This document shows positions 1-61,088 of a stretch of DNA of 64,000 nt, one piece after another. The stretch is from Bacteroidota bacterium. GTDB taxonomy: Bacteria > Bacteroidota > Bacteroidia > UBA4408. The stretch is from contig JADKHO010000004.1 in the NCBI GenBank assembly GCA_016721765.1, positions 800,409 to 864,408 of the forward strand, in the 5' to 3' direction. Both the position numbers and the translations under genes were made by a program. The notes beneath the pieces are model-generated. The model was not told the DNA's origin. It made no database searches and saw only the letters and a program-made list of their open reading frames with translations. Position 1 is the stretch's first letter, and every line of letters begins with the position of its first letter.

Positions 1-90
1 AAAGATTCGCATTTTTTTAGGCGCTATTTTTAAACGCAAGGCGAAATCCCTCAATAAAAAAAGATACTTTTGGCACACAAAAATTAAGCT

Positions 91-8770: not shown

Positions 8771-9175
8771 CCCAATCCTACATGAAACCTATTTTCCTAT
8801 GATTCTATGTGTTTCAAAAAAAATATTCTTATAAAATAAAACACATAGGCACATAGGCCAATCCTATATGAAACCTATTTTACCTATGATCCAATGTGTT
8901 TCAAAAAAAACTTCCTTAAAAAAAAACACATAGGCACATAGGCCAATCCTATATGAAACCTATGCTTCCTATGATCCTATGTGTTTCAAAAAAATATTCA
9001 CATAAAATAAAACACATAGGCACATAGGCCAATCCTACATGAAACCTATGTTAACTATGATCCTATGTGTTTCAAAAAAAACTTCCTTAAAAAAAACACA
9101 AAGGCACATAGACCAATCCTATATGAAACCAATGTTTACTATGATCCTATGTGTTGCAAAAAAATATCCTCTTCA
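8771..9175. repeat. Intergenic tandem repeat, about 5 units of about 86 bp, each a near-palindromic hairpin built from CACATAGG/CCTATGTG octamers
   Basis: Units start near 8771, 8857, 8943, 9029 and 9112. Each has a left arm aaacacataggcacatagg, a loop ccaatcctatatgaaacctatt.., and a right arm cctatgatcctatgtgtttc, separated by A-runs (caaaaaaaa). Confidence 0.85.
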
Positions 9176-9260
9176 AAAAACAGTTTGATATACTTACATT
9201 ATGAGCACCCATTAATTCAATCGAAAAAAATATTGCTTTCCCTTCATTTTAATTTTAAAT

Positions 9261-10505
9261 TTGTGTAACGATTCCTATAAAATTATGATAACATCAAAAG
9301 ATGTGTTATTGAGCCTTCAAAAGCAAGGTGGATTGATGCCTCAGGAGGAAATGCTGGAAGTAGGGCGAAAGAAAGGTCAGCTCTTTATTGGAATTCCCAA
9401 AGAAATTTCGTTTCAGGAAAACCGCATTGCACTTGTGCCGGATGCGGTGGCTTTATTGGTAAATAATGGGCACCATATCGTGATTGAAACGAATGCCGGT
9501 AAAGCAGCTCATTTTGAAGATAAAGATTACAGCGAAGCTGGAGCGCAAATTGTGAGCAGTCCGGAAGAAGTATATAAAGCCGATATCATTTTAAAAGTAG
9601 CTCCTCCCTCTCCTGCCGAAATTGAAATGATGCAGCGCAAGCAAACCTTGATTTCGGCTTTACAATTTGCAGTGCAGCCCGCTAATTATGTGAAGCAACT
9701 GATAGATAAAAAAGTAACCGCCATAGCCTACGACTACATCAAAGACCGCGATGGAATTTATCCTATTATTCGCGCCATGAGCGAAATTGCCGGTAACACC
9801 TCCATTTTGATTGCAGCCGAATATTTGAGCAATTTAAGTATAGGACAAGGTTCTATGTTTGGAGGAATAACAGGCGTATCCCCTACCGATGTAGTGATTT
9901 TAGGAGCAGGAACCGTTGGAGAATTTGCCACCCGAGCTGCGCTTGGATTGGGTGCATCCGTTAAAATTTTCGACAACTCAGTATATCGCTTGCGACGTTT
10001 ACAAAGCGATTTGGGTATGCGTGTGTTTACTTCTTTACTTCAACCCAAAGTAGTAAGCAAAGCACTAAAAACCGCCGATGTTGTAATTGGTGCCATTCGA
10101 GCCCCGCACGGACGGACTCCTTGTGTAGTGAGCGAAGAGATGGTAATGGAGATGAAATACGGAGCTGTCCTTATCGACATCAGTATAGACCAAGGAGGAG
10201 TTTTTGAAACATCCGAGATAACCAATCATACACATCCTGTATTCCGCAAACATGGAGTAATTCATTACTGTGTTCCCAATATTGCATCCCGCGTTTCGCG
10301 CACTGCATCGTATGCCTTGAGCAATATATTTGCACCTATTTTATTGAATATTGGCGAAGAAGGCGGTATTGATAACATGCTTCGAAGAGATAGCGGTGTG
10401 CGTCATGGTGTATACGTGTATAGCGGAATTCTTACCAATCGCTTTTTGGGCGAAACCTATCACTTGCCATATAAAGATATTGATTTATTGATGGCCGTGA
10501 TTTAA
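9261..10505 (+). CDS. ald: Alanine dehydrogenase / PntA-family NAD(H)-binding enzyme (most likely alanine dehydrogenase)
   Basis: An AlaDH/PNT N-terminal domain (IGIPKEISFQENRIALVP) and a Rossmann motif VVILGAGTVGEFA. The ORF probably starts later than the track's 9261 (Met at about 9336 or 9351), because Ald proteins begin at the IGIPKE segment. Confidence 0.7.
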   Translation: MCNDSYKIMITSKDVLLSLQKQGGLMPQEEMLEVGRKKGQLFIGIPKEISFQENRIALVPDAVALLVNNGHHIVIETNAGKAAHFEDKDYSEAGAQIVSSPEEVYKADIILKVAPPSPAEIEMMQRKQTLISALQFAVQPANYVKQLIDKKVTAIAYDYIKDRDGIYPIIRAMSEIAGNTSILIAAEYLSNLSIGQGSMFGGITGVSPTDVVILGAGTVGEFATRAALGLGASVKIFDNSVYRLRRLQSDLGMRVFTSLLQPKVVSKALKTADVVIGAIRAPHGRTPCVVSEEMVMEMKYGAVLIDISIDQGGVFETSEITNHTHPVFRKHGVIHYCVPNIASRVSRTASYALSNIFAPILLNIGEEGGIDNMLRRDSGVRHGVYVYSGILTNRFLGETYHLPYKDIDLLMAVI

Positions 10506-10581
10506 TCCACCTTGATGCTGATAATTCTATTATTTTCTAAATCAAATACGCTTTTGTAGTGTTGCAATACTTAATTCTATT

Positions 10582-10983
10582 ATGACCACTTCCCGACGAA
10601 TAAGACTCTTTATAATTGGTGTGCTATTGGGTAGCATCATCATGTATTTTTTTGTTTTTAAAAATCGCAATGTATACAAATCACCAAGCGAAGTTATTCA
10701 TGGAAAGTTGCAAAGTCAGCATCTTGAATACAGCAAGCATGCACAATGTCGCATGAAATGCCGCAACATCAGCGAAAGCGAAGTGAAAGAAATTTTAATG
10801 AAAGGCGAGGTGAATTACACTAAAAGCCAAGTACATGATAAACCTTGCCCCTCTTATGCCTTAGAAGGCAAAACTTCGGACGGTCAGAATGTTCGAATTG
10901 TTTTTGCTGAATGTGATAGCGTTACCAAAGTTATTACTGCAATTGATTTGGGATTGGAGAATGATTCCTGCGCCTGCGAATAA
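10582..10983 (+). CDS. Membrane-anchored small protein with a DUF4258-like (RelE/colicin-E5-like toxin fold) C-terminal domain
   Basis: 133 aa with an N-terminal TM helix (LFIIGVLLGSIIMYFFVF). The distal part (HAQCRMKCRNISESEVKEIL..GKTSDGQNVRIVFA) resembles the DUF4258 consensus H..R...R.IS..EV. Assigned from memory, not by search. Confidence 0.4.
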   Translation: MTTSRRIRLFIIGVLLGSIIMYFFVFKNRNVYKSPSEVIHGKLQSQHLEYSKHAQCRMKCRNISESEVKEILMKGEVNYTKSQVHDKPCPSYALEGKTSDGQNVRIVFAECDSVTKVITAIDLGLENDSCACE

Positions 10984-11214
10984 CTAAAGTTTATTCCAAA
11001 TAAGATTCAAGCGCGGCGCTCTCCGCAACTTCTCTGCGCACCCTTCGGTTAAATCATTTCTTCAAAAAGTATTTCTTTAATTTAATAACACAAGCACATC
11101 CTAAAAAAACTCAAGAAATAATTATTGATACAATCTAAACATGAAATACACCTCCAAAAAAAATATTTTTTACTCATTTAAACCAATAAACTTTTCAGTT
11201 GTCTGAATAGAACT

Positions 11215-12228
11215 ATGTGGCATTTCCAAACAGGGATTTTAGTGTTTTTCCTTGCACTATCCATTTATACAAAGGCGCAGCAAGCAAGGCTATTTAAACC
11301 TTCCTTGGCTTTACATTATACGTATGTTCCGGAAAGTAAACTTCAGGATTCTGCAGGATCTTATTCAAAGCAAAGCGGTCAGCTCAGTTTTTTTATTCCC
11401 ATTTACAATCATATTATTTTAGGAGATTCCACGCACAAATCTTCTTACTTCCAGCTGATGACAAATGGCTCAGCAGCTTGGAGCAGTGCAGATTTATCGA
11501 ACGTAATGCAACAGCAACATCTACTTGGTGCATCGCTTGGTTTAAGTGCATTTTTGGTAAAAAACAGAAAAAACATTTTTTCCTTGTCTGTTAGTTCAAT
11601 GAGTCGAAATGATAACTATACCTTGGGTACTCCCGAAATTCGTTATGCCGGACTTGCACAATACCGTAGAAATGTGAGTAAGGGATTTTCGTTTCATATG
11701 GGATTGGGCTACTCCTATTTTATTGGTCGTGGTATTTTGTTTCCTGCACTGGGAATGAGTTTCAAAACAGGAAAACGAAGTCGCATGATTATTAATTTTC
11801 CGAGTCGCATATCTTTTGTGCAACGGATTGGTAACAAAGTTCGCCTTACTGCTTATTTAAAACCGCAGGGTGGATTTAATTACATTTCAAATCGAAGTGA
11901 ATACAGCCAATTTCCGAAGGCATTTTATTTTCGGCAAAGAGAAAATCATATAGGAATAACTACGAACATCAAGCTTAGCAATAGCTTTACCACAAGTGCT
12001 GACATCGGGTATGCTTTCCGCAGAAGCATCCGCCTAAGCGAAGGCCTGCAAAAAAACTCAAGTACCTTTTATAAAAGTGGAATTAATAATGGCGCCTATA
12101 TAGGTGTCGGACTTAAATATATTTTTGGTTCTCCAAAGCGCGATAAGGAAAAAGAAATTATTGGGAATGATTCCGAAAAGGAAGAGCTATTGAGTGATCC
12201 TGATTTTTATGATATTATTTCGGAGTAA
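11215..12228 (+). CDS. Hypothetical secreted / outer-membrane protein
   Basis: 337 aa. Signal peptide MWHFQTGILVFFLALSIYTKAQ and an alternating beta-strand-like pattern. No assignable family. Confidence 0.5.
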   Translation: MWHFQTGILVFFLALSIYTKAQQARLFKPSLALHYTYVPESKLQDSAGSYSKQSGQLSFFIPIYNHIILGDSTHKSSYFQLMTNGSAAWSSADLSNVMQQQHLLGASLGLSAFLVKNRKNIFSLSVSSMSRNDNYTLGTPEIRYAGLAQYRRNVSKGFSFHMGLGYSYFIGRGILFPALGMSFKTGKRSRMIINFPSRISFVQRIGNKVRLTAYLKPQGGFNYISNRSEYSQFPKAFYFRQRENHIGITTNIKLSNSFTTSADIGYAFRRSIRLSEGLQKNSSTFYKSGINNGAYIGVGLKYIFGSPKRDKEKEIIGNDSEKEELLSDPDFYDIISE

Positions 12229-36309: not shown

Positions 36310-37425
36310 ATGCAATCCGCTCCCAAAACTTATTTTCCCAACCTGGATGCGACACGTTTTTTTGCCTTTATTCCCGTTTTTTTTACCCATGTTTTTTTCT
36401 CACAAAACCCCGCTGTACTTAACTCCCAAACCTATCATTTTGTTGAAACTCACTTAAAAGTTGGAATTTTGGGCTTGGACTATTTTTTTGTTTTGTCGAG
36501 CTTCCTTATCACATGGATAATTTTGGAAGAATATCAAAATGCTGCTGCTTTTAATTTCAAAAACTTCGTTATGCGCCGTAGTTTGCGTATTTGGCCTTTG
36601 TATTTTTTAATTGTGGGAATTGGTTTTTTGGCTGCTCAATTCTTTACTACCGCTCAATTGCCGCCCCTGCCTTACTTTTTGTTTTTTATTTTGAATTTCT
36701 ATATCGTGGAACAAGGCGATACTTTTTTGTTCTTTTTGGTGATTTTATGGTCGGTTTCGGTGGAAGAGCAATTTTATTTTTGCTGGGCGATATTGCTCAA
36801 GTTCTTAAAAAAATACTTGCTTCCCTTTTGTTTTATTTTGATTGGGATTTCGCTGCTTTTTCGTTGGATGAATTTAACAGACCAAAAAAAATTGTATTTC
36901 CACACAGCCAGTACACTTGCCAACTTCTCCATAGGTGCGCTGGTGGCCTACCTTTCCTTTAATAAAACAAAGGCTTTTCATTTTTTAAAAACGTTGCCCA
37001 AGATTCAAATTTTTTCAATTTATTTCTTGATGTTTTTAAACATCATTTTTTACAAAAGCATTTATTGTACCCCACTCTTGCAAACCTTTGAACGGCTTAT
37101 CTTTTCATTGTTTTTTGGATTCATTATTTTTGAACAATCCTTTTGTACCGAGTCTATCTTTCGACTTGGTAAATGGAAATGGAGCAATTATCTCGGCAAT
37201 GCTTCATTCGGCCTGTATTGCTATCATGGCGTTGTTATCACTATTTTTATTAAGCTCAGTGAGCACTATGGCTGGTCCTTTTCGGCATTACAAATTTTTA
37301 TTCTTAACCCGCTACTGTTGTTAATCCTTACTATTGCTGTAACAATTGCCAGCTATGAGTTCTATGAACGAAATTTTTTAAAATTAAAAGATAAGTTCAG
37401 GCCCAAACCTATACCTGTAAAATAA
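36310..37425 (+). CDS. Acyltransferase family 3 (OafA/YrhL-like) integral membrane O-acyltransferase
   Basis: 371 aa with about 10 TMs. The N-terminal LDATRFFAFIPVFFTHV is the acyltransferase_3 hallmark. Confidence 0.75.
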   Translation: MQSAPKTYFPNLDATRFFAFIPVFFTHVFFSQNPAVLNSQTYHFVETHLKVGILGLDYFFVLSSFLITWIILEEYQNAAAFNFKNFVMRRSLRIWPLYFLIVGIGFLAAQFFTTAQLPPLPYFLFFILNFYIVEQGDTFLFFLVILWSVSVEEQFYFCWAILLKFLKKYLLPFCFILIGISLLFRWMNLTDQKKLYFHTASTLANFSIGALVAYLSFNKTKAFHFLKTLPKIQIFSIYFLMFLNIIFYKSIYCTPLLQTFERLIFSLFFGFIIFEQSFCTESIFRLGKWKWSNYLGNASFGLYCYHGVVITIFIKLSEHYGWSFSALQIFILNPLLLLILTIAVTIASYEFYERNFLKLKDKFRPKPIPVK

Positions 37426-37428
37426 CTT

Positions 37429-38514
37429 GTGAGCGCTGCCTTGATAACAAACGACAAACACTTTATGAATGTCATACTTTTAAAACTTGAAAGTAAAACC
37501 TCACTATTTTTTTGCTCCTTGTTGGTTGGATTACTTTTTTTGGGATTAGCAATGCTCTATGCACAACCACTATTCAATTCGATGTACCATGGCAGTGTCT
37601 TCGCAAGAATGTCGACCGCGCCGTTTGATTTTACACAAAACTATGCTTTACAAAACCGAATTCTTGGGCCATTGTTGGGCTATTTGCTTTTTTTAAGAGG
37701 GGATTTATTCTATTTACTTCCGTTGATGTTCACCTTTTTCTTCCTTTCTGCCATTTATTATTTTCAGCGTAAAAATGATTGCAGTCCGCTAGTTGCTTTA
37801 CTCTACGTTGCCATCATTGCCTTTTCCTCCTTAGTGCTAATCCCATTGTTTTCGCCCGGATATACTGACCCAATTTCATTTTTCTTTATTTTTCTTGCCT
37901 TTCAATTTGCTCAAAAATCACCCCAAAAATCAGCTATTTTTTATGCGCTAGCATTGCTAAATCACGAAAACTGTGCTTTTCTATTTCCAGCGTTATTGCT
38001 GTATTCAATGAGTTTTAAAACCACTTATTTTTCAACATTGCTAACTTATTTTTGCGCTTTGCTTCCGCTGATGGCATTCCGGATGTGGGTAGCCAGCGAA
38101 ATTGAGCCTGAATATTCCCTTGCTTTTTATTTTTCGGACGAAAACCTTGAAGCCTGTGCAAGCGTTTGGAATAAAATCCCTGCAGGCATCTTTTTTTGCT
38201 TTAAACTGAGTTGGATTTTTCCACTACTTGGGATGATGTATGCGTTTAAAAACAAAGAAAAATGGCTAGGGCTTTCCCTACTTTCACTGCTGCTGGTTCC
38301 CTTACTGCAATACCTCATTGCCTATGATATTACACGAATGATGTGCATTGCATTTCCTGCCGTGCTACTATCCTTACAAAAATTGCAAAAAGAATGGGGC
38401 AACAAAAAATTCATCCAATTTGCCGCAACGATACTGCTCCTAAATTTTCTAATTCCTAGCGCTATCATGGCAAGAGAAGGATTGTTTTTGCTAACGCCTT
38501 TTTGGATGAATTAA
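37429..38514 (+). CDS. Polytopic integral membrane protein, possibly a polysaccharide polymerase / EpsG-like
   Basis: 361 aa and highly hydrophobic with at least 9 predicted TMs. It starts 4 nt after the acyltransferase_3 stop, which suggests an operon. No catalytic motif recognised. Confidence 0.45.
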   Translation: MSAALITNDKHFMNVILLKLESKTSLFFCSLLVGLLFLGLAMLYAQPLFNSMYHGSVFARMSTAPFDFTQNYALQNRILGPLLGYLLFLRGDLFYLLPLMFTFFFLSAIYYFQRKNDCSPLVALLYVAIIAFSSLVLIPLFSPGYTDPISFFFIFLAFQFAQKSPQKSAIFYALALLNHENCAFLFPALLLYSMSFKTTYFSTLLTYFCALLPLMAFRMWVASEIEPEYSLAFYFSDENLEACASVWNKIPAGIFFCFKLSWIFPLLGMMYAFKNKEKWLGLSLLSLLLVPLLQYLIAYDITRMMCIAFPAVLLSLQKLQKEWGNKKFIQFAATILLLNFLIPSAIMAREGLFLLTPFWMN

Positions 38515-55576: not shown

Positions 55577-55910
55577 TCTTTTAAGAATTTCATCTCCCTC
55601 TTAAAATATAAATATTGGCCCCCTATCCGTGCTGGTGGGTATATAAAATTACCACTAAATACGTATTGACCGGAAACGCAGGCTTTTGGAGTTTTGAAGA
55701 AAAAATTCAAGACATGAAAGCAATCGTAAAATTAACCATCGGCGGCATCCCGGGAACTTCTCTTTAATACTCCCATATTTACGTTTTGGAATACCCTTCC
55801 CGCTAAGGAAACTTATCGAATTAAGTATTTAGCAGCTTAACATTCGCTATAAATAGCTTTGTAGCTTTTATGAAAATCGACTAAATTTCTAGTTCGCAAT
55901 ACTTAGGGTG

Positions 55911-56522
55911 CTAATAAAACAATAGCTCCCATTGTACTTTCATTCGGGCCAATGCTTCGTACAAATAAAATTTATAATTCATTGTTTTATACTCACCTGC
56001 TGAAAAGCCAATTGGATGTAATCCCATTCTTTTTGCAACAAATAGCGCACGTTCCAAATGAAGTCGTTGACTTATAATTACAACACTATCCCCTTCATAT
56101 TTTTTTGCATAGTTAAGTAGGCTTCGAAATGTGCTATTACCATTATTATCAAGCACAATTGATTTTGCCGGAATGCCTTTTTTAAGTAAAAAATCATTCA
56201 TGTCTTCGGGTTCATTATAATAGGGGCGTTTTATTTTTCCGCTGCAAACAATTCGCAGCAATTTATTTTTTGAGTTGAGTTTTACACATGCATTCATGCG
56301 GTTAGAAAAGGTTGTATTTTGCCATTCTCCCAAAGGAGAATTTCCGGCACCGAGTATTAAAACATTATGGTAATTCCCCAGCCTACTGAGTTCAGTATGA
56401 ATGTTACTACGGTTGCTAATTGAAATAAGAAAATAGTTTACTACTATAAAACACACTAGAAACAACGGTAGTATTAACACAAGAAGCAACAAACGATTAA
56501 GCCATTTTTTCATTTCCTGCAA
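55911..56522 (-). CDS. SanA/YdcF (DUF218) family membrane protein
   Basis: 203 aa. An N-terminal TM, then the DUF218 pattern (VLILGAG..., ..RMNACVKL.., ..VIISQRLHLERALFVAK). Confidence 0.7.
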   Translation of the reverse strand: MQEMKKWLNRLLLLVLILPLFLVCFIVVNYFLISISNRSNIHTELSRLGNYHNVLILGAGNSPLGEWQNTTFSNRMNACVKLNSKNKLLRIVCSGKIKRPYYNEPEDMNDFLLKKGIPAKSIVLDNNGNSTFRSLLNYAKKYEGDSVVIISQRLHLERALFVAKRMGLHPIGFSAGEYKTMNYKFYLYEALARMKVQWELLFY

Positions 56523-56875: not shown

Positions 56876-57853
56876 ATGAATCCCATTCTTTCGCAACTCA
56901 TAATAAATACAGCACAAAGAGCAAAGAAAAAGAATCGCATTAAAAGAGATACGTATTCCTCCTTTGAGCTTGCAAGAGCATACCGTAAATTAAAATTAGA
57001 AGCGATTGAATTAACGAAAGATTTTTTTTTGATTACCCTAGGTATATTTTCGGCAGCGTTTGGCTTAGAAAGTTTTTTACTTCCCAGTAATTTTATTGAT
57101 GGCGGCGCAACAGGAATTGCATTACTGATTTCAGAAATAAGCAAGTTATCCCTTTCATTTTTATTAATCCTTATAAATATTCCATTCTTGTTTCTTGGAT
57201 TTAATATCATAGGGAAACAATTTGCTGTAAAAGCAGCACTTGCCATTGGTGGACTTGCAGTAGTTATAGCAACCGTTCATTTTCCAAGCATTACGCATGA
57301 CAAATTACTTGTGGCCTTATTTGGTGGATTTTTTTTAGGTGCGGGAATTGGATTAACCGTGCGTGGTGGTGCAGTGCTGGATGGAACCGAAGTATTGGCA
57401 ATCGCGCTTAGTAGAAAACTTGGTACCACCATCGGCGATATTATCATAATCATAAATGTGGTGGTTTTTTCATCCGCAGCATATTTTCTATCAATTGAAA
57501 CTGCACTCTATTCGATGATTACTTATTTAGCAGCTTCAAAAACCTTGGATTTTGTAATTGAAGGAATTGAGGAGTATACCGGTATAACGATTGTGAGTGC
57601 GCACTTCGAAGAAATTCGTGTAATGATTACTGATGAACTGCGCAGAGGGGTTACCGTTTACAAAGGACGTAGAGGCTTTGGCTCACATGGGCACAATAAG
57701 GAAGTAGATATTATTTACACGGTGGTAACGCGATTAGAGGTGAATAAAATTAATACCGAAATCGAAAAAATTGATCCCAATGCATTTGTGATTATGAGCA
57801 GCATTCGGGATACCAAAGGGGGCATGATTAAAAAAAGAGCTTTTAAACATTAA
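56876..57853 (+). CDS. YitT family membrane protein (DUF161 x2 + DUF2179)
   Basis: 325 aa. Two repeats of the GGxTG-containing YitT membrane module (IDGGATGIALL, GGAVLDGTEVLAI) and a C-terminal DUF2179-like region (GVTVYKGRRGFG). Confidence 0.75.
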   Translation: MNPILSQLIINTAQRAKKKNRIKRDTYSSFELARAYRKLKLEAIELTKDFFLITLGIFSAAFGLESFLLPSNFIDGGATGIALLISEISKLSLSFLLILINIPFLFLGFNIIGKQFAVKAALAIGGLAVVIATVHFPSITHDKLLVALFGGFFLGAGIGLTVRGGAVLDGTEVLAIALSRKLGTTIGDIIIIINVVVFSSAAYFLSIETALYSMITYLAASKTLDFVIEGIEEYTGITIVSAHFEEIRVMITDELRRGVTVYKGRRGFGSHGHNKEVDIIYTVVTRLEVNKINTEIEKIDPNAFVIMSSIRDTKGGMIKKRAFKH

Positions 57854-57985
57854 TTAATTTATTGCAAATACCGATACAATAATCTGCTTAGCCCATTTCT
57901 TTTCTTCACCTAACAAATCAAGTGCACCTTCACTGCACAATCAGTAAAAGAATTTATTTTAGCTGCTAGAATAAATTCAAAATTT

Positions 57986-59251
57986 ATGGCGCGCACACTT
58001 TGGATTACCCTTATTTCTTTATTTTTTTTTAGCAACAATTTGTTAGCTCAGCTCGATACAACTGAAACTGCCCGTCAGTTGAGTTATATTCATAAGTACG
58101 CTGAAGCTGATGCACTGCTTACTGCATTCGAAAAAACACATCCCAACGATATTAATGCTGTACGATTACATGCACAAATTTTATATTGGATGAAAGATTA
58201 TTCTGCTGCGCTTAATTTGTGTTCCTCTTATTTGAAAAACAATCCTGAATGGCATTTTTTAAAATTAGATTATGCCCGAATGCTTTATGAATTGCAGCAG
58301 TGGAAAAAAGCGAAAGTCGTTTTAATTGAATACCAGGTCGCTGGAAATTCAAACATTGAAGCAAAAAATATGCTTGCTACAATTGCCTATTGGCAAGGTA
58401 AAACCAAGACCTCTGAAAAACTTTTTAATGCTGTATTAAATTATTATCCAACAAATGAGTGGGCAAAAAACTATTTGAACGAAATCAAAAATGCCAAAGC
58501 GCCTTATGCAAAATTAACATCGTGCTACAGCAGCGATACTCAACCCATGTCGGCCTTGCATGCAGGCATTGAAACTGGTGTTTATCGTTCGCATTTGCTT
58601 GCGCCTAAATTTACTATGGAATGGCAAAAAGCTGATTCCGGAAATAGTTCAGCAACTGGCTACTCCAGCGAAATTTCGAACAAGTTTTTCTTTAGTGGCA
58701 TAAAAACAGAAATTCAATTAAGTGCTGGAATAGTGACCCCATTGGCAACAAATTCAATACATGGCATAGGAACTATTGAGGTAAAAAATCAGTTCCACAA
58801 AAATTTTTCTATCTCGCTCTGCGTTGCACGAAAAAACTATCAATACACGCTTTCCAACTTTAGCACTGCCATCATGTATACAGATTATGCCGCAACAATT
58901 TCCTTTTTCAAAGAAAAAATAGGCAGTGGCAAAACAGCTTATACGTTTCAGCAATTCGACGATAACAATTCTGTTCAACAGTATTATGCCTGGTTGCTTT
59001 CACCTGCGCTTCGCCTTTCAAAATTTGAATTTTATTTGGGATATAATTTTAATTACTCGAGCAGCCAATACAATCGCTATAATTTAACCACAACGCCTTT
59101 GCAAGCCATTGTGCAGTTTGACGAATCCGGAAAAATACCGGCTGCATACTCACCCTATTTCACTCCACAAAATCAACAGATACACTCCCTCCTGGCAAAT
59201 GTAATTTTTACTACCGGCAAAAAGACAAGTATTGCATTAAATGCAAATTAA
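57986..59251 (+). CDS. Outer-membrane TPR + beta-barrel protein (PgaA/BcsC-like exopolysaccharide export component), apparently truncated by an in-frame TAA
   Basis: Signal peptide MARTLWITLISLFFFSNNLLAQ, then about 170 aa of TPR-like helices and a beta-strand-rich C-terminal half. The reading frame continues for 83 sense codons after the TAA at 59249-59251, out to 59500, with a beta-barrel-like sequence ending ..LNLTYRF. Confidence 0.6.
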   Translation: MARTLWITLISLFFFSNNLLAQLDTTETARQLSYIHKYAEADALLTAFEKTHPNDINAVRLHAQILYWMKDYSAALNLCSSYLKNNPEWHFLKLDYARMLYELQQWKKAKVVLIEYQVAGNSNIEAKNMLATIAYWQGKTKTSEKLFNAVLNYYPTNEWAKNYLNEIKNAKAPYAKLTSCYSSDTQPMSALHAGIETGVYRSHLLAPKFTMEWQKADSGNSSATGYSSEISNKFFFSGIKTEIQLSAGIVTPLATNSIHGIGTIEVKNQFHKNFSISLCVARKNYQYTLSNFSTAIMYTDYAATISFFKEKIGSGKTAYTFQQFDDNNSVQQYYAWLLSPALRLSKFEFYLGYNFNYSSSQYNRYNLTTTPLQAIVQFDESGKIPAAYSPYFTPQNQQIHSLLANVIFTTGKKTSIALNAN

Positions 59252-59483
59252 GCAGTAGATGCAAAAGCGGAAAGCCCTTATCTCTATTTTGATAACAATG
59301 AAAACAATAAGTTAATAATTGTGCACGATTACTATTCGCAAAAATATTCCCCTCTCGAATTAAGTGCAAACCTCAAGCTTAGGCCAACAATTAAGTTCGC
59401 GATAGAGTTAACTTACAAATACCAAAAAGCATTTTATTTTGAGCAACATTCCGCCTTCCTTAATTTGACTTATCGATTTATTA

Positions 59484-61088
59484 ATGGCAAAGGACGATAA
59501 GAACTTATGGACTTTTCGTGAGGCGAAAAAAGTTAGCCCAATGGCTCGCTTCCTGCTAATTGTGCTGGTAATTGCAGGCTTTATTTCCGTGATAAGGCTT
59601 GCCAACTGGTGGTTTCGAGAAGAACACGTTGCCAATTTGGGATTATTTATTTTATTGTCGGCAGTATTTTGGTATGGGATTCTTCGCTTGCTACTAATTT
59701 GGACGAATTACCTGGCTGTAAAAAAACCTGAACCTATGCCCACTCCTGCTGGATTGCGAGTTGCCATTTTTACAACCAGCTCTCCCGGTGAGCCCCTTAG
59801 CATGTTCGAAAAAACATTAGAAGCTTGTGCAAATATCACCTATCCACATACTACCTATTTGTTAGACGACACACAAAATCCCGAATTTAAAGCTTGTGCC
59901 GAAAGGCATGGTGCAGTGTGGCTTGAGCTTGTAGGATTGCCGGGTGCAAAAGCAGGAAAGGTAAACAAAGCACTGTCGTTAACTACCGAAGAATTTGTGT
60001 TGGTATTGGATCCCGACCATATTCCCTTTCCCAATTTCTTGGATGAGGTGCTTGGATTTTTTAACGATGAAAAAGTGGGATATGTGCAAGTAGCACAAGC
60101 CTATTACAATCAATACCGCTCCTTCACCGCAAAGGGAGCAGCACAACAAACATATGGCTTTTACGGACCTACTCAAATGGGATTATTTGGAAGAAACTGT
60201 GCCGTTGCAATTGGCGCAAATTGCACCTTTCGGCGGAAAGCATTAGAATCAGCAGGTGGTCACGGAATTGGGCTGGCAGAAGATTTAATTACTGCCATTC
60301 GTATTCATGCCGAAGGATGGAAATCCATTTATCATCCGGTAATCGTGAGCCGTGGATTAGTTCCCGAAGACTTTGGCTCCTTTTGTAAACAACAATTAAA
60401 ATGGGCGCGTGGCGTGCATGAAGTGTTGTTTGCTGAAGTGCCCCGGCTTTTTAAAAAACTATCCTTCTGGCAACGCATATCTTATAGTACAATTGGAACT
60501 TACTATTTGGTAGGTACAACAACACTCATTTATATGCTCATCCCGTTTTTGTATTTGCTATTTGGGGTATTGCCGGCCAATATGCGTTTTATTGAGTTTA
60601 TTGAATTCGGAATTCCAGTTACACTTATTTCCATTTTAATTTATCTTTATGTGCAAATTTGGATGTGTCATCCAAAGGTAGAGCGCGGCTTGCACTGGAA
60701 TGGGATAATTTTAAAATTTGCCACTTGGCCGGTTTTTTTCTTAGGATTTTTGCTTTCTTTAGTGGATGGTGAAATTCCATACATACCCACAGCCAAGCAA
60801 GCTGTAACAGGTAAAGTATCGCCCTTTGCACGACCATTGCTGGCACACATTTTACTTTTTGTAATAACCGTTTTCTACACGTTGTATCAGCGAAGATACA
60901 TTGTTGCCGAAACCACTTTGGTAAAAACAGCTGAGCAAACCTGGGGCATGATTGCTTTTGCAAGTATTTCAGTTTTACTAGCTTTTGGTGGGATGTATGC
61001 TGTAATAGAGTCTAAAAGGCTTAGCGCAGAAGATCCTTGGGAAAAGATTGATGTATCCAAATTAGAATCAAAAAGGAAAGAATCATGA
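59484..61088 (+). CDS. Processive family-2 glycosyltransferase (cellulose-synthase-like / PgaC-like beta-glycan synthase)
   Basis: 534 aa. N-terminal TMs, then a GT-A domain with the D, DxD (VLDPDH) and Q(Q/R)xRW (QQLKWARG) motifs, and several C-terminal TMs. The start could also be the internal Met at 59541. Confidence 0.8.
   Translation: MAKDDKNLWTFREAKKVSPMARFLLIVLVIAGFISVIRLANWWFREEHVANLGLFILLSAVFWYGILRLLLIWTNYLAVKKPEPMPTPAGLRVAIFTTSSPGEPLSMFEKTLEACANITYPHTTYLLDDTQNPEFKACAERHGAVWLELVGLPGAKAGKVNKALSLTTEEFVLVLDPDHIPFPNFLDEVLGFFNDEKVGYVQVAQAYYNQYRSFTAKGAAQQTYGFYGPTQMGLFGRNCAVAIGANCTFRRKALESAGGHGIGLAEDLITAIRIHAEGWKSIYHPVIVSRGLVPEDFGSFCKQQLKWARGVHEVLFAEVPRLFKKLSFWQRISYSTIGTYYLVGTTTLIYMLIPFLYLLFGVLPANMRFIEFIEFGIPVTLISILIYLYVQIWMCHPKVERGLHWNGIILKFATWPVFFLGFLLSLVDGEIPYIPTAKQAVTGKVSPFARPLLAHILLFVITVFYTLYQRRYIVAETTLVKTAEQTWGMIAFASISVLLAFGGMYAVIESKRLSAEDPWEKIDVSKLESKRKES

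Follow-up and report, generated by a model that had tools for sequence, protein, structure and literature searches.

Does an in-frame stop codon in the gene of an outer-membrane porin reflect a sequencing error, a codon that the cell knows how to read, or a gene that has genuinely been broken? The question is raised by a tetratricopeptide repeat (TPR)/beta-barrel gene at 57986-59500 of a 64,000-nucleotide stretch of DNA (the window) from a Bacteroidota bacterium, taken from contig JADKHO010000004.1 of the metagenome-assembled genome (MAG) GCA_016721765.1 (positions 800,409 to 864,408). The gene is followed by those of a family 2 glycosyltransferase (GT2) and a GH26-like glycoside hydrolase, with which it would make up a three-gene, synthase-dependent exopolysaccharide cassette as the outer-membrane export component. 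Taken as a whole, the evidence is likely to reflect a young and real nonsense allele of this export porin that would have abolished its function.

A stop codon inside the barrel-encoding region

Translation of 57986-59500 in a single frame yields a 421-aa protein, one stop, 82 further residues and a second TAA (Table 1). The initial annotation of the locus held that an in-frame TAA splits an outer-membrane TPR/beta-barrel gene, and both the TAA at 59249-59251 and homologues that span it are found. The peptide quoted for the continuation is identical to its translation, and it does overlap the start of the GT2 gene, with the ancestral porin open reading frame (ORF) and the GT2 gene, whose ATG lies at 59484, sharing 17 nt. 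The frame is open as described, but its length of 83 sense codons (59252-59500) has to be corrected to 82 and a stop. Likewise, the continuation lacks a Met, the reason given for its absence from the list of ORFs, but in-frame GTG (59321) and TTG (59465) codons are present, and a 59-aa ORF at 59321..59500 is listed once GTG starts are allowed.

A stop-free run of this length had been put at below 1% by chance, in line with the value of 0.004 that base composition gives for at least 82 codons (38% GC, stop probability 0.065 per codon); empirically, 1.8% of six-frame stop-to-stop intervals are as long, real genes being counted among them. After 5 of the 50 long ORFs of the window, the same frame stays open for 82 codons or more; in the four cases other than the porin, the open stretch is a neighbouring gene in its entirety (TsaE, GNAT, PlsY and a membrane protein). 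Taken alone, the open frame would be no more than suggestive of a split gene; what settles the matter is the homology that spans the stop, not the openness of the frame.

This homology is extensive. A protein search with the joined sequence, carrying an X at the stop, retrieved the window's own 421-aa protein and 18 others, 17 of which are 471-553 aa long and cover 93-100% of the query; the closest homologue, P0002, has 504 aa and is 81% identical. Two outcomes had been named in advance as speaking against a split gene, namely homologues that uniformly end at the TAA and a continuation unlike their C-termini, and neither is observed: all 82 downstream residues align to the C-termini of the homologues, with A426, P431 and P456 invariant and A428, L433, Y477 and F498 nearly so. 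The column of the stop is occupied by Tyr in the closest relatives and by Ile in most others. When 1.84 billion representatives were searched exhaustively with a profile, 752 clusters were returned at E<=1e-30; the C-terminus (profile position >=494) is reached by 146 of the best 150 matches, and the sole entry among these 150 to end near position 424 is the window protein, the three other short entries ending elsewhere. On the DNA level, a scan of GTDB species genomes identified 33 loci in Bacteroidota (Saprospiraceae, Chitinophagaceae, Hymenobacter, Algoriphagus, Flavobacterium) and two Ignavibacteria, and in nearly all of them the porin gene is uninterrupted and reaches the equivalent of residues 498-504. 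A sense codon in the orthologues, combined with a downstream frame homologous to their C-terminus, is as expected of a nonsense pseudogene.

A few copies of the porin gene or the cassette among the related loci appear to be defective as well. In an uncultured Chitinophaga MAG of 3x coverage (L017, 54-1535) there is an in-frame TGA at residue 465, in an Ignavibacteria MAG (L035, 1800-3226) a frameshift near residue 340, and in the isolate Fibrivirga algicola JA-25 (L033, 6001-6586) nothing is left but a piece of the TPR region (residues 23-157) and one of GH26 (residues 291-340).

The window also holds a second pair of ORFs in one frame, an AT3 acyltransferase (36310-37425) and a 361-aa polytopic membrane protein without a Pfam family (37429-38514), with a TAA and one codon between them. 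The idea that 36310-38514 is another split gene, and so a sign of systematic error or of recoding, was rejected in favour of two separate genes: the first ORF encodes an entire AT3 domain (3-324 of 326), and the second is unrelated to it.

Origin, age and authenticity of the allele

The three closest DNA relatives all have TAC at the site of the stop, in flanks that are otherwise near-identical: L001 (from SRR9637882; 84% nt identity over the porin gene), L002 (from SRR28161539; 97% nt identity; its contig is noisy, with numerous indels) and L003 (from GCA_020051655.1; 95% nt identity). Because all three carry TAC, the lesion is read from the aligned sequences as a single C>A transversion at 59251 that turned Tyr422 (TAC) into TAA. 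In the 246 nt past the stop, the window and L002 each carry a single private substitution (that of the window being 59325 G>A, R447H), and L002 has one homopolymer indel in addition. The GT2 gene is intact and evolves with omega = 0.025 relative to L001, and the GH26 gene is intact as well. Since neither the downstream codons nor the two downstream genes show decay, the lesion is evolutionarily young, yet it is old enough to be found on two haplotypes.

The second haplotype comes from the 90%-identity cluster of the window protein, which contains four further sequences. One of them, P0021, stems from a different (Logan) assembly, is likewise 421 aa long and has the same ...IALNAN end. It differs from the window protein by L9F, S228T and G238D, and at position 228 it is P0021 that has the Thr of the relatives and the window that is derived; judging by these differences, P0021 appears to be the same truncation on a different haplotype. 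P0022 is an intact, near-identical allele of 504 aa, P0020 is a fragment that has Tyr at the stop site and reads ...NANYAVDAKAESP, and P0023 is a 55-aa sequence with no similarity to the porin.

The initial annotation had left the choice between a nonsense pseudogene and a sequencing error open. In the latter case, the TAA would have entered the MAG consensus through faulty base calling, polishing or a mixture of strains, and the organism would have TAC and an intact 504-aa porin. The window belongs to a MAG contig of 947,657 bp, and consensus errors do occur in genomes of this kind; the codons past the stop show virtually no decay, which is also what an error would produce, and the nearest other sequences have TAC; the isolated defects of the porin in L017 and L035 may themselves be erroneous. 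However, a random error would not recur, and the identical truncation is found in an independent assembly, in a protein that differs at three residues and at one of them is ancestral where the window is derived. Moreover, no other gene is disrupted in the 9.6 kb shared with L001, where every gene is intact in frame and of equal length except for the DUF218 gene (Table 1), and the stop lies outside any homopolymer (AATTAAGCA) and is a substitution, unlike the indels of the noisy L002 contig. Because P0021 independently encodes the same 421-aa truncation on another haplotype, the stop is probably a real nonsense allele, and we regard a consensus error as unlikely.

Further DNA copies of the site were also sought. 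An exact-pattern scan with a 38-mer around the stop, with N at the third codon base, gave no match in JGI metagenome or GTDB genome contigs; a look-up of DNA copies by exact product returned none on record for P0021, P0001, the window GT2, YitT and GH26 proteins or the 59-aa ORF; and a protein-based scan of JGI metagenomes found only distant relatives that are at most 41% identical.

Between close relatives, the porin gene is a hot-spot of divergence. Between the window (57983-59500) and L001 (6001-7515) the porins share 81.5% aa identity, compared with 98.5% for YitT, 96.8% for GT2 and 96.6% for GH26, and the nt identity of the porin gene over 57983-58982 is 73-85%. Third-codon-position differences from L001 number 14-23 per 40 codons, then fall to 2-9 over 58946-59500 and rise again to 10-16 in the GT2 gene, a pattern that suggests that the 3' end of the porin gene is either a mosaic (recombination) tract or constrained at the level of nucleotides. 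Differences between the window and L002 cluster within about 100 nt at 58420-58520, where L002 matches the more distant L001, and this clustering also speaks for allelic mosaicism where the TPRs are encoded. A stretch at 55786-55984, in which the DUF218 gene has its 3' end and which extends into the flank, is only about 68% identical to L001 in surroundings that are 90-97% identical.

Table 1. Coordinates of the interrupted porin gene, its parts and its neighbours in the window
Feature	Position	Strand	Remarks
Truncated porin ORF, 421 aa	57986..59251	+	Ends ...IALNAN; NCBI MBL0049911.1 (IPP32_17650)
Predicted signal peptide, residues ~1-21		+	Sec-type; boundary between ...NLLA and Q
Predicted TPR helices, residues 25-171	58058-58498	+	Part of truncated ORF
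Predicted beta-strands 1-13, residues 173-420	58502-59245	+	Part of truncated ORF
Premature TAA, codon 422	59249..59251	+	Orthologous codon TAC (Tyr) in L001, L002 and L003
82 still-open codons, predicted barrel strands 14-18 and C-terminal ...LNLTYRF498	59252..59497	+	Alignment, AlphaFold2 model
Ancestral (true) porin stop, TAA	59498..59500	+	Common to full-length orthologues
GT2 processive synthase, intact, 534 aa	59484..61088	+	BcsA-like, without PilZ; motifs DPD, AED, QQLKW
GH26-like glycoside hydrolase, intact, 347 aa	61219..62262	+	Third cassette gene; structural relatives from PDB search
DUF218 gene	55911-56522	-	203 aa; 200 aa in L001

A predicted short TPR-porin in a putative synthase-dependent cassette

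The joined protein was modelled with AlphaFold2 from a 14-sequence alignment, with a mean predicted local distance difference test score (pLDDT) of 88.4. The model predicts an N-terminal hydrophobic helix that corresponds to the signal peptide, ten helices at residues 25-171 that correspond to the TPR region, and 18 strand segments at residues 173-497. The N-terminus, MARTLWITLISLFFFSNNLLAQ, reads as a Sec signal by inspection, and TPR_19 and other Pfam TPR families match residues 45-157. A signal peptide, a periplasmic TPR region and a C-terminal beta-barrel are thus predicted in one polypeptide, as is characteristic of TPR-porins. Codon 422 would fall into the turn between strand segments 13 (414-420) and 14 (425-437), and the downstream codons would encode strands 14-18 (residues 425-437, 443-453, 457-465, 471-481 and 486-497). 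The pattern of last barrel strands that had been recognised in the continuation by eye agrees with these five predicted strands, and the near-terminal aromatic residue noted there is the conserved F498, which the last strand reaches and with which it ends. The C-terminal ...LNLTYRF498 is a putative beta-signal for the beta-barrel assembly machinery (BAM).

In synthase-dependent exopolysaccharide systems an alpha/alpha-repeat domain is fused to a porin, which has 16 strands in BcsC and PgaA (PMC9384988), and the TPR-plus-porin architecture of these systems has been described for PgaA and PelB (PMC9384988, PMC12141448). A Foldseek comparison of the window model with the PDB places precisely these proteins in the top five, BcsC (9B8A, 9B8H, 6TZK), PgaA (4Y25) and PelBC (9H80), with E values from 4.5e-19 to 5.5e-11, ahead of generic porins and autotransporters (E ~3e-9 or worse). 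On the sequence level, the joined 504 aa match neither BCSC_C nor any other barrel family of Pfam at E<=10 but TPR families only, a profile search of PDB sequences retrieves TPR proteins only, and NCBIfam yields sub-threshold TPR matches only. Because its barrel belongs to no curated sequence family, the window protein is, as far as the model and the genomic context go, BcsC/PgaA/PelB-like rather than a member of these families; its own family is a sequence-distinct, short relative of BcsC, PgaA and PelB.

The likeness is greatest with BcsC of Escherichia coli, which provides the best Foldseek matches (E 4.5e-19 to 2.3e-14, TM 0.54-0.58), also fuses a periplasmic TPR array to a C-terminal outer-membrane barrel and is also encoded beside a GT2 synthase, BcsA in its case, and a glycoside hydrolase. 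The window protein differs in being much shorter (504 aa with about 4-5 TPR pairs, compared with about 19 TPRs in BcsC; PMC9384988), in its sequence (about 10% identity, no match to BCSC_C) and in the 18 strand segments of its model as opposed to 16 strands. The systems also differ in that the window synthase lacks PilZ, the hydrolase is GH26-like rather than the GH8 enzyme BcsZ, and the window porin is broken. PgaA (Foldseek E 7.8e-14, TMt 0.77) and PelB (E 5.5e-11) likewise combine TPRs with a porin; here the differences lie in the lack of sequence-level membership, of a PgaB/PelA-type deacetylase and of a PelC ring, and in the polymer, which to judge from the synthase and the hydrolase is probably neither PNAG nor Pel but a beta-glucan.

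The porin is encoded together with a processive GT2 synthase and a hydrolysing enzyme, as in an operon. In about 22 of the 33 GTDB loci the porin gene is followed by GT2 and then by the GH26-like gene, as in the window, and the overlap between porin and GT2 genes is kept in L001 and in the distant loci L010, L014-L017 and L020. No terminator-like sites were found between the three cassette genes, and in a scan for sigma-70 promoters matches were no more frequent than in shuffled sequence. The GT2 core is homologous to BcsA (PDB 4HG6, 4P00 and 9FMV; E ~1e-30). The protein scores 163 bits against TIGR03030, for which the cut-off is 699, and has no match to PilZ; by these profiles the synthase is BcsA-like and not a BcsA equivalog. 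Instead of the canonical QxxRW of processive GT2 synthases it has QQLKW (60390-60404, residues 303-307), and the K of this motif recurs in 25 of the 25 cassette loci that cover it. Among solved structures, the closest to the GH26-like protein are those of the GH26 domain from endoglucanase H of Clostridium thermocellum (E 1e-34). Endoglucanase H, the only name that the PDB match table gives, is presumably the lichenase CtLic26A of Taylor et al. 2005. The polymer is thus probably a beta-glucan, either cellulose-like or mixed-linkage.

In Flavobacteriaceae (L025, L027, L029; ~9090-12020) the GT2 gene is followed by the GH26 gene at a distance about 2.9 kb greater than in other lineages, which implies that one or more extra genes have been inserted into the cassette. 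According to the GTDB scan, the cassette is carried by isolates that include Hymenobacter armeniacus BT189, Algoriphagus aquatilis CGMCC 1.7030 and Segetibacter sp. 3557_3; a literature search aimed at it found no paper that describes it in Bacteroidota.

Expected consequences of the probable nonsense allele

How would the C>A change at 59251 affect the cassette? Translation would stop after strand 13, and the product would keep its signal peptide, TPRs and 13 strand segments and lose five strands along with the C-terminal aromatic motif. Outer-membrane barrels that are unable to close and lack the C-terminal aromatic signal are not assembled by BAM and are degraded in the periplasm. The truncated porin would be expected to share this fate, and with its barrel unclosed and its C-terminal signal gone, polymer export through the cassette should therefore be lost. 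The GT2 start lies inside the ancestral porin ORF, and ribosomes would now end 232 nt before it, so any translational coupling to the synthase should be lost as well. In the natural population, the nonsense allele would segregate beside intact TAC alleles.

It is important to point out what weighs against this explanation. The loss of function is derived from the general biology of outer-membrane proteins. Relaxed selection after the stop cannot be demonstrated by comparing dN/dS upstream and downstream, where sites are too few: window-branch changes, polarised with L001, amount to 4 synonymous and 6 nonsynonymous downstream of the stop and to 11 of each upstream. Finally, P0021 may share a sequencing project with the window, and hence a systematic base-calling error.

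A more far-reaching proposal is that the TAA is a standing loss-of-function allele kept by selection, in a cassette that constitutes an uncharacterised, widespread Bacteroidota system for beta-glucan secretion. If this were true, the allele might provide an escape from a phage or predator that uses the porin or the polymer, or might allow 'cheating' on a shared matrix polymer. The allele would sit in a porin that, over its first two-thirds, has diverged far more among close relatives than the neighbours have (81% as against 97-98% aa identity), and the system would consist of a short TPR-porin, a PilZ-less BcsA-like synthase with QQLKW and a lichenase-like GH26. We consider this combination improbable.

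Much less credible is the notion that the 421-aa protein, alone or with a separate C-terminal piece translated from GTG 59321, is a functional variant. The allele has persisted for some time, as its presence on two haplotypes indicates, and the 59-aa GTG ORF does exist downstream; however, only 13 strand segments are left and the nearly invariant C-terminal region of Y477 and F498 is gone, the 59-aa product lacks a signal peptide and its translation would begin inside strand 15, and of the 150 best homologues none but the window protein stops here. The odds are slimmer still for a full-length porin made by decoding the stop, be it through programmed read-through, a suppressor tRNA or reassignment of TAA: the frame is open for exactly the ancestral length and the downstream operon is intact, but an open frame is equally expected of a young nonsense mutation, the orthologues carry a sense codon (TAC/Tyr, or Ile) rather than a conserved stop, TAA is a general terminator that ends 31 of the 47 long ORFs of the window, including the porin's own ancestral frame, and occurs in the same TAAG context at six normal gene ends, no tRNA gene was found in the window, and Rfam has no match in 57700-59700, so that neither a c-di-GMP riboswitch nor any other RNA element came to light close to the operon.

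The young nonsense allele of the export porin thus remains the likely explanation, and as an event it is ordinary in kind: a surface-polysaccharide locus has recently acquired a nonsense mutation, which makes a pseudogene or loss-of-function allele of one of its genes and calls for no new mechanism. As in ordinary bacterial nonsense pseudogenes, an in-frame stop has arisen from the change of a single base, the frame past it can still be read and keeps its homology, intact versions of the gene occur alongside, and the operon genes on either side are undamaged. Nothing sets it apart in kind, and only its public annotation as a normal CDS is peculiar: NCBI lists MBL0049911.1, identical to the 421-aa ORF, as 'MAG: hypothetical protein IPP32_17650 [Bacteroidetes bacterium]'.

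None of what follows from the finding is mechanistically surprising. An entry presented as an ordinary CDS encodes a truncated and almost certainly non-functional porin, and the exopolysaccharide capacity of the MAG would be over-called if it were deduced from gene presence. The analysis incidentally outlines a compact, conserved porin-synthase-GH26 cassette in Bacteroidota, of which several cultured carriers exist; this is a mildly interesting side observation and not the subject of the finding. Finally, since intact and nonsense alleles are both present in public data, the site is a candidate marker for differences between strains in matrix production.

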